From a virus (taxonomy: Duplodnaviria; Heunggongvirae; Uroviricota; Caudoviricetes), in the IMG/VR virus record IMGVR_UViG_2778261689_000005: a DNA stretch of 10,179 nt. One strand, given 5' to 3'. The notes below the pieces were generated by a model. The model worked only from the letters and a program-made list of their open reading frames with translations, had not been told where the DNA came from and did no database searches. How positions within the stretch are numbered: position 1 is the stretch's first letter; every line of letters begins with the position of its first letter. Below are positions 1 through 7,559 of this stretch, piece after piece. Position numbers and translations under genes: made by a program.

Positions 1-1053
1 TTACGGGGTAATGCCAACCGCTGCCGCCACTTTGTCGCCACTTGGCAGCGTTGCCAGAGGATTGAAACGGAGCGCCGTTTCCAGATGATCCGGTGCCAGA
101 TGTGCGTAACGCATAGTCATTTTTATATCGTGGTGTCCGAGAATTTTTTGTAAGGCCAGAATGTTTCCACCCGACATCATGAAGTGCGCCGCAAACGTAT
201 GGCGCAGAACGTGTGTGAGTTGACCGCGAGGGAGCACGATAGACGTTTTTTCCATCACGGATAAAAATTGAAAATAGCAGTCTGTGAAGAAATTGAACCC
301 ATCAAGCGCCATGATCTCTTCGTAAAGCTCTTTACTGATAGGGATACTTCTGTTTTTCTTCCCCTTCGTTCTTACAAAGGTAATTCGGTATTTGGTCACC
401 TGTGAACGAGTAAGATTTACGGCTTCTCGCCAGCGTGCGCCTGTGCTTAAGCATATCTTAACTACCAGTGCTAGAATTGGGTCCTGACGTTTGCAATCAG
501 CCAGTAATTCAACAATCTGCTCATGGGTAAGCCATGCCATCTCTTTTTCTGCGATGGTGAATTTTCGCATGTTCTCCAGTGGGTTCGGATACGCCCATTC
601 GCCCAGACGGGATAGTTCGCTAAAAACACTACTTAGATAGCTTTGCTCCAGGTTAATGGTGACCGGGCTTGCTCCTTTCTTCCATTTCTCGCTGAAGTAG
701 ATCTCGCCTGTCAGGCGTTTATCTCGATAGTGGGCAAACATTTTAGAGGTGAGATCGGTTGCAAGAGGATTGCCCAGAGCGTCAACCATCAGCAGCAATT
801 TGTCATAGACATGCTGCCCAGCAGTCAGAGATTTACCATGTAGTTTGAACCATAGCTCAACCACGTCTTTCAGGGTTCGACGATCCACTGATTCGCCCAG
901 CCATGGCTTTGATTCGGTTTCTTCCATAGTGTGACGCTCAAAAGCCAGAGCTTCGCCTTTGGTGGCGAATTGTTTACGCACACGACGCCCACTTCGTCCG
1001 GCGGGGTAACATTCGCAAAGCCATTTCCCTGTGGTGAGTTTTCGTACTGCCAT
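1..1053 (-). CDS. int: P2/186-family tyrosine integrase (site-specific recombinase), about 350 aa
   Basis: Six-frame ORF 1..1209(-). Start placed at ATG 1051-1053 (minus) because the protein from there (MAVRKLTTGKW...GRRVRKQFATKGEALAFERHT) matches the N-terminus of P2 Int as I recall it, and GGAGGG lies about 7 nt upstream on the minus strand. C-terminal catalytic region has tyrosine-recombinase motifs (LSTGARWREA, HVLRHTFA, LGHHDIKMTMRYAH). The upstream 52 codons of the ORF are probably not translated. Confidence 0.9.
   Translation of the reverse strand: MAVRKLTTGKWLCECYPAGRSGRRVRKQFATKGEALAFERHTMEETESKPWLGESVDRRTLKDVVELWFKLHGKSLTAGQHVYDKLLLMVDALGNPLATDLTSKMFAHYRDKRLTGEIYFSEKWKKGASPVTINLEQSYLSSVFSELSRLGEWAYPNPLENMRKFTIAEKEMAWLTHEQIVELLADCKRQDPILALVVKICLSTGARWREAVNLTRSQVTKYRITFVRTKGKKNRSIPISKELYEEIMALDGFNFFTDCYFQFLSVMEKTSIVLPRGQLTHVLRHTFAAHFMMSGGNILALQKILGHHDIKMTMRYAHLAPDHLETALRFNPLATLPSGDKVAAAVGITP
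19..40. repeat. attL core candidate: 22-bp direct repeat CGCTGCCGCCACTTTGTCGCCA, inside the 3' end of int
   Basis: Matches 7325..7346 at 21 of 22 positions (C versus T at the 12th base). A match this long is not expected by chance in 10 kb. Flanking sequence on either side of the two copies is unrelated. Position (int 3' end on one side, just after the ogr stop on the other) is what a P2-like prophage boundary looks like. Confidence 0.6.
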
Positions 1054-1241
1054 AAAAAATGCCCTCCAGTAGAGAGCATTTTTACTGTATGTATAACCAG
1101 TGTCAATGTATGAAATCCTACGACCATACATCTCACTGAAGCCATAATGAAGTTGGCTATTCTTTTTGCTATGTGAGCATGTAACTTTTGCGGTTAACCT
1201 GCGGCTCATTTTTATTTTAGACGCAGATATAAAAGCAAAAG

Positions 1242-1433
1242 TTATCGTGAGTTTTTAGTACAGATTTTTTTGGATTTACTAATAGTTCCATCATTGCAAA
1301 CGAATTTGCCATCTGAGGTACAGTGAGAAACACCTCCCTTTTTCCCTGAGCAGGGATAATTTCTAGCATAGGTAGTTAGTGGGTTTAATAACAAAGAACA
1401 TGACAAAACCACAAAAAATACCTTACCAAGCAT
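1242..1433 (-). CDS. Small predicted secreted cysteine-rich, lysine-rich peptide (63 aa), unknown function; possible moron
   Basis: ORF with strong Shine-Dalgarno (GGGAGG about 5 nt upstream of ATG on the minus strand), beginning 15 nt after the cI stop and in the same frame and strand as cI. N-terminus [23 protein letters not shown] looks like a Sec signal peptide (positive n-region, hydrophobic core, TYA before a likely cleavage site). Mature part of about 40 aa has 4 Cys and many Lys. Local G+C is about 34% by my count over 1211..1440. No homolog recognised from memory. Confidence 0.45.
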
Positions 1434-1448
1434 AGTTTCCTCCCGGTA

Positions 1449-2018
1449 CTATTTAACATACTTGACTGTTAAACTTATAATTTTACCAATTATTTCAATG
1501 TCTTCTATCTTACATTCGAAGGCTCTGTTTCCACCCTCGACGAAGATTCTTCCACCGGGTAAACGAGTAATGTCACGGATCGTTACTTCGCCATCAATAC
1601 TTATTACCCATTTACCATCACGTATATCATCAAATTCTTTATCACAAATAAATTCAGAATTGTTATCTGTGATGACAAAAGGTTTTTTAAACGTAGAGGG
1701 TAAAAATCCCTTATCAAAAATATAAAAACCGTCTTCACGCAAGGCACCATCAGATAATACATATTTAGCAACTTCCATAGTATTTGTATTACCTGAAGTT
1801 TGCTTTGAACCATGTCCGGTTGTGAGCCAATTAAGCGAGGTGCCCGTTTCAAGGGCGCACTGGATTACCCATTCTGCTGGGAATGAGTCACGCATGTAGC
1901 GTGTGGCGAGTGTACTTTTAGAGATTCCTAAATGATCGCACAACGCCTGTCGAGTTTTGAATCCATAAGCTTCTACCATGCGCTCTATAGCGCCTCGTCC
2001 GCCTTTCTCCAAATTCAT
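1449..2018 (-). CDS. cI: Phage 186-type CI immunity repressor, about 189 aa
   Basis: Six-frame ORF 1449..2024(-) begins at GTG; the ATG two codons in (2016-2018) with GGAG about 5 nt upstream is the likelier start. Motifs EAYGF, ALETG..L.WL.TG.G, RLPGG and FEC.I.DI match what I recall of 186 CI. Divergent from the apl-cII operon, as in 186. Confidence 0.85.
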   Translation of the reverse strand: MNLEKGGRGAIERMVEAYGFKTRQALCDHLGISKSTLATRYMRDSFPAEWVIQCALETGTSLNWLTTGHGSKQTSGNTNTMEVAKYVLSDGALREDGFYIFDKGFLPSTFKKPFVITDNNSEFICDKEFDDIRDGKWVISIDGEVTIRDITRLPGGRIFVEGGNRAFECKIEDIEIIGKIISLTVKYVK

Positions 2019-2042
2019 GGTCACTCCAAGTGAACTTTTATC

Positions 2043-2071
2043 TTGACGATTTCATTGTGCGATCGTATGTT
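2043..2071 (+). promoter_or_regulatory. Candidate rightward early/lytic promoter (pR-like): TTGACG, 17-bp spacer, TATGTT
   Basis: -35 TTGACG at 2043-2048 and -10 TATGTT at 2066-2071 with a 17-nt spacer, in the 125-bp region between divergent cI and apl. Flanked by inverted hexamers GTGAAC (2030-2035) and GTTCAC (2078-2083) that could be operator half-sites. A GATC lies in the spacer (2062-2065). Leftward pL could not be placed with confidence. Confidence 0.4.
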
Positions 2072-2143
2072 TATGGTGTTCACAAAATACAAACGATCCG
2101 TATTCGTCCTGATTAATCATCATTAAACGAGGAATGTTGCATC

Positions 2144-2365
2144 ATGAGACCTAACATTTCAATCACTCTTACCACGCCTCATGTGACTATTGAGCGCTAT
2201 AGCGAGCTGACAGGGCTGTCCATCGATACCATCAATGACATGTTGGCTGACGGACGCCTTATCCGTCACCGTTTGCGCAAAGATAAAAAACGCGAAAAAG
2301 TGATGATCAACATAGCAGCCATGACCGTTGATGCGCTTTCAGAATGCAATCTAAACCTTAATTAG
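2144..2365 (+). CDS. Apl/Cox-like helix-turn-helix excisionase and switch regulator, 73 aa
   Basis: First gene of the rightward operon, GAGGAA about 9 nt upstream of ATG. HTH-like segment [25 protein letters not shown] and overall size and position match P2 Cox / 186 Apl. Confidence 0.7.
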
Positions 2366-4198: not shown

Positions 4199-5052
4199 GC
4201 ACCATCCTGAAATGGGCGGGAAATAAAACTGCCATAATGTCCGAACTGAAAAAACATCTTCCTGCTGGCCCGCGACTGGTTGAACCTTTCGCGGGTTCCT
4301 GTGCTGTGATGATGGAGACGGATTATCCCAGCTATCTGGTTGCGGATATTAATCCTGATTTAATCAACCTCTATAAAAAGGTTGCCGCTGATTGTGAATC
4401 GTTTATATCTCGCGCCAGAGTTTTATTTGAGATCGCAAACAGGGAGGTGGCTTATTACAACATAAGGCAGGAGTTTAATTACTCAACTGAAATTACTGAT
4501 TTCATGAAAGCGGTATATTTCCTGTATCTCAATCGTCACGGTTACCGTGGTTTATGTCGCTATAACAAGAGCGGGCATTTCAACATTCCCTACGGTAATT
4601 ATAAAAATCCGTATTTCCCTGAAAAAGAAATTCGCGCATTTGCAGAAAAGGCCCAGCGAGCAACGTTTATCTGCGCCAGCTTTGATGAAACGCTGGCGAT
4701 GTTGAAGGCGGGGGATGTGGTGTATTGCGATCCGCCGTATGACGGTACGTTTTCCGGCTATCACACTGACGGCTTCACTGAAGATGACCAGTATCACCTG
4801 GCATCTGTTCTTGAACATCGGTCATCAGAAGGACATCCGGTCATTGTTTCTAACAGTGACACATCCCTGATCCGTTCGCTGTATCGCAATTTTACTCACC
4901 ACTACATCAAGGCAAAACGCAGCATCGGTGTGGCAGCTGGCGAGGGTAAATCAGCAACAGAAATCATTGCTGTTTCCGGGCCGCGCTGCTGGGTGGGATT
5001 TGATTATTCGCGTGGCGTGGATAGTTCTGCCGTGTACGGAGTACGTGCATGA
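4195..5052 (+). CDS. dam: Dam-family DNA N6-adenine methyltransferase, about 285 aa
   Basis: Six-frame ORF 4135..5052; start placed at ATG 4195 (GGAGG about 5 nt upstream, ATGA overlap with the upstream stop). N-terminal LKWAGNK, SAM-binding-like EPFAGSCAV and catalytic DPPY motifs in the order seen in Dam-family enzymes. Confidence 0.9.
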
Positions 5053-6308
5053 GTCATGCCGATATGAACAACTGCTGCGGCTTTAACGAAGCTGCCGCAT
5101 CGTTCTCATGGAACAGCCCGAAAAAGGCCATTAACCCTTATCTGGACCCGGTGGAAGTTGCGCCGGTTTCTACGCTTTCAAACCTGATCACTCTGTACGC
5201 TGCCGATAACGAGCAGGAACAGCTGCGCCGTGAGGCGCTGAGTGATCAGGTCTGGGAGCGTTATTTCTTTAATGAATCCCGTGATCCTGTCCAGCGCGAA
5301 ATGGAACAGGATAAGCTCATTAGTCGGGCAAAGCTGGCGCATGAGCAGCAGCGTTTTAATCCGAATATGGTCATTCTGGCGGACGTCAACGCCCAGCCTT
5401 CCCATATCAGCAAGCCGCTGATGCAACGTATTGAATACTTCAGCAGCCTGGGCAGGCCAAAGGCTTATTCCCGCTATTTACGTGAGACGATTAAGCCATG
5501 TCTGGAACGACTGGAGCATGTACGCGACAGTCAGCTATCTGCATCTTTTCGCTTTATGGCAAGCCATGAAGGGCTGGACGGCCTGCTGATCCTGCCTGAA
5601 ATGAGTCAGGATCAGGTGAAACGCCTGTCCACCCTGGTAGCTGCGCATATGAGTATGTGCCTTGATGCCGCTTGTGGCGATTTGTATGCCACCGATGACG
5701 TTAAGCCAGAAGAAATCCGCAATACATGGGAAAGGGTGGCAGCGGAAACCCTGCGTCTGGATGTCATCCCGCCTGCGTTTGAGCAACTCCGTCGGAAAAG
5801 AAACCGCCGTAAACCCGTGCCCTATGAACTCATTCCGGGTTCGCTGGCGCGTATGTTGTGCGCCGACTGGTGGTATCGGAAATTATGGAAGATGCGTTGC
5901 GAATGGCGGGAAGAGCAGTTGCGTGCAGTCTGCCTTGTCAGCAAAAAAGCATCTCCTTATGTCAGCTATGAAGCCGTGATGCATAAACGTGAGCAGCGCC
6001 GTAAGTCGCTGGAGTTTTTCCGTTCTCATGAACTGGTGAACGAAGACGGCGACACGCTGGACATGGAGGATGTGGTAAACGCCAGCAGCAGCAACCCAGC
6101 GCATCGCCGCAATGAGATGATGGCCTGTGTTAAAGGTCTGGAGCTTATCGCGGAAATGCGCGGTGACTGCGCCGTTTTCTACACCATCACCTGTCCGTCA
6201 CGTTTCCATTCCACGCTAAATAACGGCAGGCCCAACCCAACCTGGACAAATGCGACGGTACCCGCCGTGAAAAATCGTGGCATAAGACCACCGTCGGGGA
6301 AGTGGTGA
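5049..6308 (+). pseudogene. A: Truncated replication initiation gene A (P2 gpA family); N-terminal ~395 codons retained, catalytic domain missing
   Basis: ATGA overlap with the dam stop; GGAG about 7 nt upstream. Internal segments ([35 protein letters not shown]) align with the N-terminal half of P2 gpA as I recall it. The frame ends at 6306-6308 before the region that would carry the metal-binding histidines and active-site tyrosines. The last ~22 codons read gene D sequence out of frame. Confidence 0.8.
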
Positions 6309-7015
6309 AGGAAATAGCCGCGCGGCACAAGCTGAAGATGGCACTGGGTAAAGACCTGTCGGATAAGCCCGTGGAGCATATAGACCAGACTAATGAGAGT
6401 GACGGCAGTTTTCTGATGCGGCTGGCGCGACAGTACGGTGCCATCGCGTCGGTGAAAAATGGCAATCTGTTATTCATCCGGCAGGGGCAGGGCAAAAGCG
6501 CCACTGGTAAACCTCTGCCAGTGATCACTATCACACGCAAGGACGGCGACAGTCACCGATTTACCCTGGCAGATCGCGGAGCCTACACGGGCGTAATTGC
6601 CAGCTGGTTGCATACCCGCGAACCTGCGAAGAAAGAAAGCACCACGGTGAAGCGTAAGCGCAGAACTAAGAAGCAGAAGAAAGAGCCAGAAGCGAAGCAG
6701 GGCGATTATCTGGTGGGTACGGATGAAAACGTGCTGGTACTTAATCGCACTTATGCCAACCGGAGCAACGCCGAACGAGCGGCGAAAATGCAGTGGGAAC
6801 GCCTGCAACGCGGCGTTGCGTCATTTTCGCTACAACTGGCAGAAGGGCGGGCAGATCTCTACACGGAAATGCCTGTGAAGGTCAGTGGTTTTAAACAGCC
6901 GATAGATGATGTGGAATGGACCATTACGACTCTGACGCATACCGTCAGCCCGGATAACGGTTTTACGACCAGTCTGGAGCTTGAAGTGAGGATTGATGAT
7001 TTCGAAATGGAATGA
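6224..7015 (+). pseudogene. D: 3' fragment of tail gene D (P2 gpD family), about the C-terminal 250 codons, lacking its own 5' part
   Basis: Open frame from the stop at 6221-6223 to TGA 7013-7015; first in-frame start is GTG 6302. Segments SWHKTT, ESDGSFLMRLAR, SVKNGNLLF, ADRGAYTGV, GRADLYTEMPVKVSGFK and GFTTSLELEV are characteristic of gpD. Similarity appears to begin near 6255-6265, directly after gene A similarity ends, in a different frame. Confidence 0.75.
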
Positions 7016-7071: not shown

Positions 7072-7105
7072 TGTGAATTTAGCAAAAATGGGGAGAACTC
7101 GAAAA

Positions 7106-7324
7106 ATGATGATTTGCCCACTGTGTGGAAGTGCAGCCCATACTCGCAGCAGTTTTCAGGTATCTTCATTGACCAAAGAGCGTTACAACCAGTGCCAGAA
7201 CATTAACTGCAGCCATACTTTTGTTACCCATGAAACTTTTGTTCGTTCGATTGCAACGCCAAAAGAGTCAAATCCGGTTCAGCCGCATCCAATGAAATCA
7301 GGACAGGTGGCGCTCTCTCTTTGA
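7106..7324 (+). CDS. ogr: Ogr-family zinc-finger late-gene transcriptional activator, 72 aa
   Basis: Six-frame ORF 7073..7324; start placed at ATG 7106 (GGGGAG about 9 nt upstream), giving MMICPLCGSAAHTRSS...KERYNQCQNINCSHTF..., which parallels P2 Ogr including the four zinc-ligand cysteines. Size matches Ogr. Confidence 0.85.
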   Translation: MMICPLCGSAAHTRSSFQVSSLTKERYNQCQNINCSHTFVTHETFVRSIATPKESNPVQPHPMKSGQVALSL

Positions 7325-7400: not shown

Positions 7401-7447
7401 CAACAAAAAACCCATCAACCTTGAACCGAAATGGCGGGGTTGATGGG
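7401..7447 (-). terminator. Rho-independent terminator candidate downstream of ybjL
   Basis: Perfect 10-bp inverted repeat CCCATCAACC (7411-7420) and GGTTGATGGG (7438-7447), followed on the minus strand by TTTTTTGTTG (complement of 7401-7410). Loop is long (17 nt) but can pair internally. Lies about 113 nt past the ybjL stop. Confidence 0.4.
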
Positions 7448-7559
7448 CTCCACAAAATGGGGACATCAAAGAAAAGCAGTGGCACTAATTAAGACTGATG
7501 CCCTGCGGAAAAGTTCTGCGGTTGTGCAAAAAAATTTCATTTTCAGGGCAACTTCAGTT

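Follow-up and report, generated by a model that had tools for sequence, protein, structure and literature searches.

What a lysogen gains from a small gene placed between the repressor and integrase genes of its prophage is the question raised by the stretch of DNA analysed here, a 10,179-nucleotide (nt) record of a virus of the Caudoviricetes (IMG/VR record IMGVR_UViG_2778261689_000005), referred to below as the window. The window consists of a 186-like prophage remnant embedded in an Escherichia coli chromosome and matches E. coli strain L9 with 100% identity across the stretches compared. On its minus strand, between the genes for the CI repressor (cI) and the integrase (int), lies a 63-codon open reading frame, here termed ORF63 (Table 1). 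An earlier note on the same DNA had described its product as a secreted, cysteine-rich mini-protein of unrecognised sequence and had proposed a part in lysogenic conversion or superinfection exclusion. The evidence presented below identifies ORF63 as a known member of the YdcA family in an interesting position, and not as a new kind of element; by analogy with known systems, a role of the kind proposed is plausible.

ORF63 is a protein-coding gene of the YdcA family

Comparison of ORF63 with the allele carried by E. coli BL21 revealed 11 synonymous changes and one non-synonymous change over the full length, corresponding to a ratio of non-synonymous to synonymous rates (dN/dS) of about 0.02, and seven and none, respectively, over a 29-codon core. 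The same core differs from that of a 69%-identical paralogous E. coli allele by 19 synonymous changes, a saturated value, and two non-synonymous ones. Variation is concentrated at third codon positions in a four-way DNA alignment. Across genera the mature peptide hardly varies, with 11 invariant and nine nearly invariant columns among relatives that include Escherichia, Moraxella, Haemophilus and Herbaspirillum. Since synonymous changes far outnumber non-synonymous ones, ORF63 is a genuine protein-coding gene that, judging from its substitution pattern, is under strong purifying selection.

The strong Shine-Dalgarno sequence, the spacing of 15 nt from the cI stop and the shared strand, all pointed out in the earlier note, are read directly from the sequence. 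The note had also placed the gene, as an insertion between cI and int, in a stretch of about 34% G+C. The composition itself holds, since G+C amounts to 35.1% at 1210-1448 and to 35.4% within the 192 bp of ORF63, compared with 48.2% for the entire window. The low-G+C tract, however, spans positions ~1100-1800, the 3' half of cI included, so that it displays no insert boundary and composition alone does not mark ORF63 as an insert.

ORF63 belongs to the YdcA family (Pfam PF27300, NCBIfam NF007463), and its sequence, which the earlier note had not recognised, is therefore that of a curated family member. The protein scores 115.8 bits against a cutoff of 93 with NF007463 (PRK10040.1-2), matching positions 1-58 of 58 over its full length, and matches PHROG 6000 with an E-value of 1.9e-34. 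The exact ORF63 protein is present in RefSeq as WP_000900883.1, named "YdcA family protein" or "hypothetical protein" depending on the genome. Precomputed PF27300 ("YdcA") assignments are found on its 98%-identical cluster representative (P0001), on 57 of 63 other matches and on paralogs; a Pfam scan of ORF63 with a model set lacking PF27300 returned only a sub-threshold, unrelated GULLO2-like match. The sister model NF007462 was not passed (68.5 bits against a cutoff of 118).

A profile search of 1.84 billion representative proteins retrieved 333 clusters at E <= 1e-3, mostly of 55-130 residues. A few members contain two or three tandem YdcA cores (P0082-P0086), and in a few others the core is joined through low-complexity linkers to a secreted staphylococcal-type nuclease (SNase), a PLD-type nuclease or a VasL domain. 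The YdcA core is N-terminal in the fusions to secreted SNase (P0145 and P0204) and to the PLD-type nuclease (P0207), and genes for secreted SNase adjoin the YdcA gene at two loci (L093, 4147-4836; L104, 2912-3805). The ORF63 region is common, being present in 648 of 5426 complete E. coli genomes (~11%, or about one in nine; 592 at >=80% coverage), the laboratory strain BL21 included, and an annotated coding sequence lies beneath the match in all E. coli rows sampled. YdcA genes are also carried by Acinetobacter and Rhizobium plasmids, and 484 viral contigs of IMG/VR encode a YdcA relative. In the best 80 of these 484 contigs the mature peptide is 100% identical and typically lies ~1.2 kb from the contig end, which most likely corresponds to the int end of a prophage because the order cI-YdcA-int is found elsewhere.

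Several database labels were set aside. Matches listed as E. coli plasmids are really chromosome fragments, the UniRef name "Conjugal transfer protein" is unsupported by gene context, and the "ydcA" of the gonococcal island and F-plasmid literature is, in our reading, an unrelated alphabetical gene name. A 3-kb contig of a "Bacillota bacterium" metagenome-assembled genome (JAEWTL010000113.1, locus L033) encodes a 100% identical mature peptide with near-identical cI and int flanks and is most likely a binning contaminant.

Predicted export, fold and structural relatives of the ORF63 product

The signal-peptide-like N-terminus and the short, lysine-rich mature peptide with four cysteines that the earlier note had described were both borne out. 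By inspection, the predicted Sec-type signal peptide comprises MLGK, with Lys-4 in the n-region, a 12-residue hydrophobic core (GRAVY 2.86) and NPLTTYA, the final T-Y-A occupying positions -3 to -1 of the predicted cleavage site. The n-h-c layout, with Ala at -1 ahead of the conserved core, is present in 26 of 26 aligned relatives, the signal-peptide sequences of which diverge freely while the layout is kept. ORF63 contains no transmembrane segment besides the signal peptide. A lipoprotein reading was rejected, as residues 9-12 (V-L-S-C) form a poor lipobox and Cys-12 is not conserved; it is missing in most relatives, the signal peptides of which close with AxA-type sites.

The mature 40-mer contains seven Lys besides its four Cys and displays a net charge of +7 and a pI of 9.7, while the net charge of the family core averages +3.4. 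Following the predicted signal peptide, ORF63 presents the four-cysteine core PCSGxKGG(V/I)xxC...F(V/I)CxDGxxSxSKxxC. The invariant columns (K32, G33, G34, C38, F44, C46, D48, G49, S52, S54 and K55) are all present in ORF63, and C28 and C58 are nearly invariant. The AlphaFold model, computed from a 26-sequence alignment, comprises a helix at residues 3-15 and a small β-hairpin core, with a mean pLDDT of 87-90 for the residue blocks spanning 31-50. A Foldseek search of viral structures returned nothing significant for ORF63. Matches in the Protein Data Bank (PDB) to Pin-II proteinase inhibitors and lectins (E 0.2-3.5) were discounted as noise of cysteine composition.

A solved structure is available for one homolog only, Dis2 of Legionella (Lpg0823; 7MUC chain AN), a disulfide-stapled, periplasmic, outer-membrane-proximal subunit of the Dot/Icm secretion system (PMC8486379), for which the structure, five disulfides and contacts with DotC, DotD and DotK have been described (PMC8486379, PMC12716638). 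Apart from the matches discounted above, Dis2 was the single sequence hit in the PDB; phmmer aligned both of its lobes to the YdcA core (E 3e-5), and a profile search gave an E-value of 7e-5. Foldseek likewise ranked Dis2 first among PDB structures, with 38% identity over 39 columns, a probability of 0.97 and an E-value of 0.11; the hhalign result was weaker (E 1.9e-4, probability 47%). A Dis2 ortholog carries a precomputed PF27300 match and displays two cores. Homology between YdcA and Dis2 is thus probable.

ORF63 occupies a cargo slot between cI and int

In phage 186, cI and int abut with no gene between them, and ORF63 is thus, as the earlier note had supposed, an addition to the 186 plan. 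A comparison of the cI-int interval, which that note had suggested, revealed that the order cI-YdcA-int recurs in P2-family prophages of Escherichia, Enterobacter, Yersinia and Haemophilus. The allele described here is found in this order, all on one strand, in E. coli including BL21. In Enterobacter hormaechei prophages YdcA ends 2 nt short of int, and the same order occurs in genomes of Yersinia, Citrobacter, Atlantibacter, Buttiauxella, Pasteurellaceae and Haemophilus parainfluenzae, as well as in the Haemophilus phages HP2 and S2. Among 80 species-representative loci, the commonest neighbours of YdcA are a CI repressor upstream and a phage integrase downstream.

The interval also accepts other genes. 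At the same chromosomal site, sister E. coli prophages that carry the 69%-identical allele display cI-YdcA followed by a 443-residue KAP-family NTPase located between the YdcA paralog and int (L010, 5198-6529; L011-L015), which matches the PADLOC candidate defence system PDC-S20 (1.3e-171). Further prophages at this site contain an ASCH protein and two hypothetical proteins, or a second CI-like gene and a KAP NTPase, between cI and int. Among the minor defence hotspots of P2-like phages, a survey of 2026 counts the interval from integrase to primase (PMC13586616). From this other cargo and the hotspot listing it follows that ORF63 occupies a cargo slot of the lysogenic operon.

In Moraxella, the genes that follow a chromosomal YdcA and the YdcA of phage Mcat17 (L016, 4186-4884, and L002, 3126-3578) encode products that share an N-terminal membrane anchor of 53 residues (57% identity) and are possible genus-specific partners of YdcA. 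A family-wide two-gene module was rejected, as HP2 orf1 is unrelated and E. coli lacks a partner.

ORF63 expression and the spacer ahead of int

Co-transcription with the repressor, as put forward in the earlier note, is structurally sound. A terminator or an additional promoter would not fit into the 15-nt gap, so that any cI transcript includes ORF63; in phage 186 the lysogenic transcript covers both cI and int and stops at a terminator past them. A promoter scan upstream of cI found no confident pL. In HP2 the overlap of the start codon of the YdcA homolog with the cI stop indicates, from the sequence, translational coupling to cI. It is thus very probable that ORF63 is co-expressed with cI in the lysogen.

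The spacer that separates ORF63 from int contains no conserved ORF. An upstream extension of int to position 1209, which would give a 402-residue ORF, was rejected because the 2-nt indel in BL21 breaks the frame, and the spacer is thus non-coding. Its int-proximal hairpin holds the int Shine-Dalgarno sequence, and the closing T-run ends one base before the int ATG. The region from ~1001 to 1111, comprising the int 5' end and the int-proximal ~58 nt (1054-1111), is 96% identical in Klebsiella phage 4LV2017, which lacks YdcA, and is shared by other YdcA-free prophages. The arrangement points to attenuation of int behind cI-YdcA, or to its separate control; given a hairpin with the int ribosome-binding site, a T-run and a promoter-like pair in the spacer, int may be partly uncoupled from cI-ORF63. 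On the opposite strand, a terminator-like hairpin with a T-run (1188-1215, plus strand) lies just past the ORF63 stop, in antisense orientation to the lysogenic operon; no transcript that it could terminate is obvious, and it may be due to chance. A scan of window positions 900-2200 against Rfam found no RNA family.

A putative envelope factor of the lysogen

The reading preferred here, held tentatively and at somewhat less than an even chance, is that ORF63 encodes a periplasmic envelope factor of the YdcA family made by the lysogen, possibly a superinfection-exclusion factor. ORF63 would be a passenger gene ("moron") of the 186-like prophage, transcribed together with cI from the lysogenic promoter, and its translation would use a strong ribosome-binding site of its own just past the cI stop. 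The product would be exported through Sec, cleaved after Ala-23 and oxidised to a basic, 40-residue periplasmic mini-protein with two disulfides, and would be produced continuously in the lysogen. The peptide would then act as a docking module on a conserved, probably polyanionic or repeated, outer-membrane-proximal component of the periplasm and alter the envelope to the benefit of the lysogen, the likeliest benefit being that superinfecting phage, or foreign DNA of another kind, would be hindered from entering.

Binding would be favoured over catalysis because the mature peptide comprises 40 residues without a catalytic motif, because tandem-repeat and linker-fused versions exist, and because its relative Dis2 is a docking protein. 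Tandem copies and linker-tethered fusions are typical of modules that dock on, or target a protein to, a ligand that is repeated or polymeric and probably anionic; binding as the mode of action is held with moderate confidence. The two lobes of Dis2 clamp the lipoproteins DotC, DotD and DotK under the outer membrane, which directs the proposed docking to an outer-membrane-proximal component. By this analogy, docking of the ORF63 product on the envelope is moderately well supported. Exclusion of incoming phage or other DNA is a weak suggestion, also made by analogy, since the non-homologous protein Glo holds the same cI-int slot in Vibrio phage K139. Two independent deletion remnants, those of the window and of BL21, retain intact cI, YdcA and int.

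Several observations weigh against this account. Export and the two disulfides of the product, although strongly argued for by its sequence, are both predicted, and no experiments on phage-borne YdcA proteins were found in the literature. The similarity to Dis2 is only moderate, in view of the hhalign probability and the Foldseek E-value given above, and Dot/Icm assembly does not depend on Dis2, which has been assigned no function (PMC12716638). BLASTP comparison of ORF63 with Glo gave an E-value of 0.16 and 7 identities in 30 positions, which amounts to no homology, and no defence family of PADLOC-DB 2.0 matched ORF63 at E <= 0.1. In a collection of 50,697 phage records the YdcA matches belong to Moraxella, Acinetobacter, Haemophilus and Pseudomonas phages, and no enterobacterial phage with a YdcA gene was found. 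About 69 of the 80 species loci display other, varied contexts that are not beside cI or int, and many family members are single chromosomal genes, which argues for a general envelope role over a phage-specific one. Finally, deletion of ydcA in E. coli W confers sensitivity to 300 mM 3-hydroxypropionate, and ydcA is reported to be acid-induced via YdcI (PMC7642389), which favours a part in stress tolerance.

A broader version of the account, which we regard as rather doubtful, would make the YdcA mini-proteins a widespread but unrecognised group of periplasmic entry blockers borne by phages and plasmids, single-lobe relatives of Dis2 that dock on a conserved component near the outer membrane or on incoming DNA and thereby keep out superinfecting phages or DNA arriving by conjugation or transformation. 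If true, it would explain why P2-family phages of hosts as far apart as Escherichia and Haemophilus have the gene at a fixed place behind cI.

The main alternative to an exclusion factor is that ORF63, like chromosomal ydcA, provides an envelope stress or fitness function, by stabilising the envelope or by buffering stress from acid or organic acids, that serves general fitness and not phage protection; this is a serious contender, although on balance an unlikely one. The 3-hydroxypropionate sensitivity and the acid induction constitute the only phenotype recorded for the family, and they fit such a function, as do the housekeeping neighbourhoods of many of the single chromosomal genes and the ~70% identity, by our count, between the mature domain of ORF63 and K-12 YdcA. 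Retention of the gene in defective prophage remnants would likewise suit a role beneficial to the host. However, the phenotype comes from a single report that offers no mechanism and is overridden by deletion of yieP (PMC7642389). A stress function also leaves unexplained both the second, cI-tied copy where E. coli already has ydcA and the recurrence of the gene in the immunity operon of P2-family phages from distant hosts.

It is improbable, though conceivable, that the peptide is a periplasmic nucleic-acid module that binds DNA, or recruits or positions nucleases, and so blocks injected, conjugated or transforming DNA. The SNase and PLD-type fusions and the adjoining SNase genes described above point in this direction, together with the positive charge of ORF63 and of the family core, the frequency of phage and plasmid copies in the naturally competent Haemophilus, Moraxella and Acinetobacter, and the membership of Dis2 in a conjugation-derived secretion machine. 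Nuclease fusions are rare, however (3 of 42 longer proteins scanned), no nuclease gene adjoins ORF63, and its fold is unlike known DNA-binding folds; in the solved structure, moreover, Dis2 contacts lipoproteins and not DNA (PMC12716638).

A secreted cationic antimicrobial peptide, defensin- or bacteriocin-like and directed against competitors of the lysogen, is very improbable. Small size, four cysteines, a strongly cationic character and a signal peptide would all be expected of such a peptide, and the chance-level matches to Pin-II proteinase inhibitors (E 0.2-2) could be read in the same sense. Nevertheless, no immunity gene or outer-membrane export gene is located nearby and a Sec signal reaches the periplasm only, while the solved homolog is a structural subunit within the cell envelope and the mature peptide is conserved across genera, unlike the fast-evolving bacteriocins. 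Finally, a non-functional ORF63, that is, a chance ORF or a spacer regulating int, which its short length, its A+T-richness and the hairpin and promoter-like site ahead of int might suggest, can practically be dismissed, as it is refuted by the substitution pattern, the dN/dS ratio, the curated family threshold passed and a conservation that reaches from Escherichia as far as Moraxella and Herbaspirillum; the elements that look regulatory are located in 1054-1111, beyond the ORF.

The prophage remnant in the window

The coordinates of the features discussed are collected in Table 1. RefSeq names the cI product "phage repressor protein CI". On the plus strand, the prophage genes comprise, in order, apl-like, cII, fil, DUF5347, DUF2732, TraR/DksA-like, dam, a truncated A fused to a truncated D, and ogr. 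The prophage is a deletion remnant from which the head, tail and lysis genes are all gone. The exact junction between A and D is present in 2 of 5426 complete E. coli genomes, and the BL21 prophage carries another deletion (cII' to 'A). The position of the gene for the RybB small RNA (sRNA), directly after ogr, places the prophage between rcdA and rybB/ybjL, and the attachment site is probably the rybB 3' region. No secretion-system genes were found in the window, which contains only the 186-like prophage and E. coli chromosomal genes, the host genes beyond the prophage being rybB, ybjL, ybjM and grxA. A full-length relative, the prophage of E. coli OkiPb01678, carries a reverse transcriptase of the retron Ec67 family in its accessory region (L003, 18170-19151).

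Table 1. Features of the window and of the homologous HP2 locus (positions refer to the window unless an accession is given)
Feature	Positions	Strand	Remarks
int, tyrosine integrase of P2/186 type	1..1053	-	Last gene of the lysogenic operon; Pfam Int_N 3.9e-32, Phage_integrase 7.2e-22; RefSeq start equivalent to 1053
ORF63-int spacer, non-coding	1054..1241	-	188 nt; kept in BL21 save a 2-nt indel
12-bp hairpin	1055-1083	-	Inverted repeat; RNA fold -18.5 kcal/mol, z -4.26
-35/-10-like pair, TTGACA-17-AAAAAT	1106..1078	-	Promoter scan; overlaps the int-proximal hairpin
ORF63 (YdcA family gene)	1242-1433	-	63 codons plus TAA
TAA stop of ORF63	1242..1244	-	Read from the sequence
Mature YdcA domain	1245..1364	-	Codons 24-63, 40 residues; Cys C28, C38, C46, C58
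Signal peptide, Sec-type, predicted	1365..1433	-	Codons 1-23; signal peptidase I cut predicted after TYA
cI-to-ORF63 gap	1434..1448	-	15 nt exactly; cI stop TAG at 1449-1451
Shine-Dalgarno GGAGG	1439-1443	-	5 nt ahead of the ATG at 1431-1433
cI repressor, 186-type	1449..2024	-	Gene 1 of the lysogenic operon; Pfam Phage_CI_repr 2.8e-33, Phage_CI_C 5.4e-29
Gene A/gene D deletion junction	5049-7015	+	First 419 codons of replication gene A and last 237 codons of tail gene D
RybB sRNA	7402-7480	-	Rfam RF00110, 105 bits; directly after ogr (7073-7324)
HP2 YdcA homolog, 60 residues, unannotated	NC_003315 2486-2668 (L001 2920-3102)	-	Signal peptide; ATG overlaps cI stop (TAATG)

Comparison with known systems

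Searching the literature by peptide sequence, accession and model name yielded nothing. Absent from the literature searched are the recurrence of the order cI-YdcA-int in P2-family phages whose hosts are distant, the YdcA copy of HP2/S2, which is translationally coupled and unannotated, and the link between the YdcA family and Dis2. Current defence surveys miss ORF63, as no defence model matches it. The gene is easily testable, comprising 192 bp in a tractable host with a natural knockout background in K-12.

Small envelope exclusion proteins that block a later phage at entry include T4 Sp and Imm, P22 SieA, HK97 gp15 and the Cor/Llp lipoproteins. In contrast to Cor/Llp, ORF63 has no lipobox, and in contrast to Imm, SieA and gp15 it has no extra transmembrane segment; no homology of any of these proteins to ORF63 surfaced in the searches run, none of which was aimed at them. 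The closest positional counterpart is Glo of the P2-family Vibrio phage K139, a "periplasmic protein; involved in phage exclusion" encoded in the same slot and on the same strand as ORF63. Glo differs in its length of 137 residues and in being preceded by orf2, and its exclusion role is experimental, whereas that of ORF63 is suggested by position. Should ORF63 prove to exclude phages, the defence cargo of P2-like prophages would gain a mechanism that is periplasmic and involves no enzyme.

K-12 YdcA (b1419) belongs to the same family and displays the same architecture as ORF63, with a signal peptide followed by a four-cysteine core of ~36-40 residues. The K-12 gene is chromosomal, located between hokB and cybB, encodes 57 residues and matches model NF007462, in contrast to the prophage-borne ORF63, which is tied to cI. 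A role established for ORF63 would annotate the whole of PF27300, chromosomal ydcA included.

Dis2 has been described as Legionella-specific and without structural neighbours (PMC8486379, PMC12716638). It comprises two lobes with five disulfides and belongs to a 13-fold secretion assembly, while ORF63 presents a single lobe with four cysteines in a host without Dot/Icm. The role of the single-lobe prophage protein, once established, might provide a first functional handle on its two-lobed relative in Legionella.

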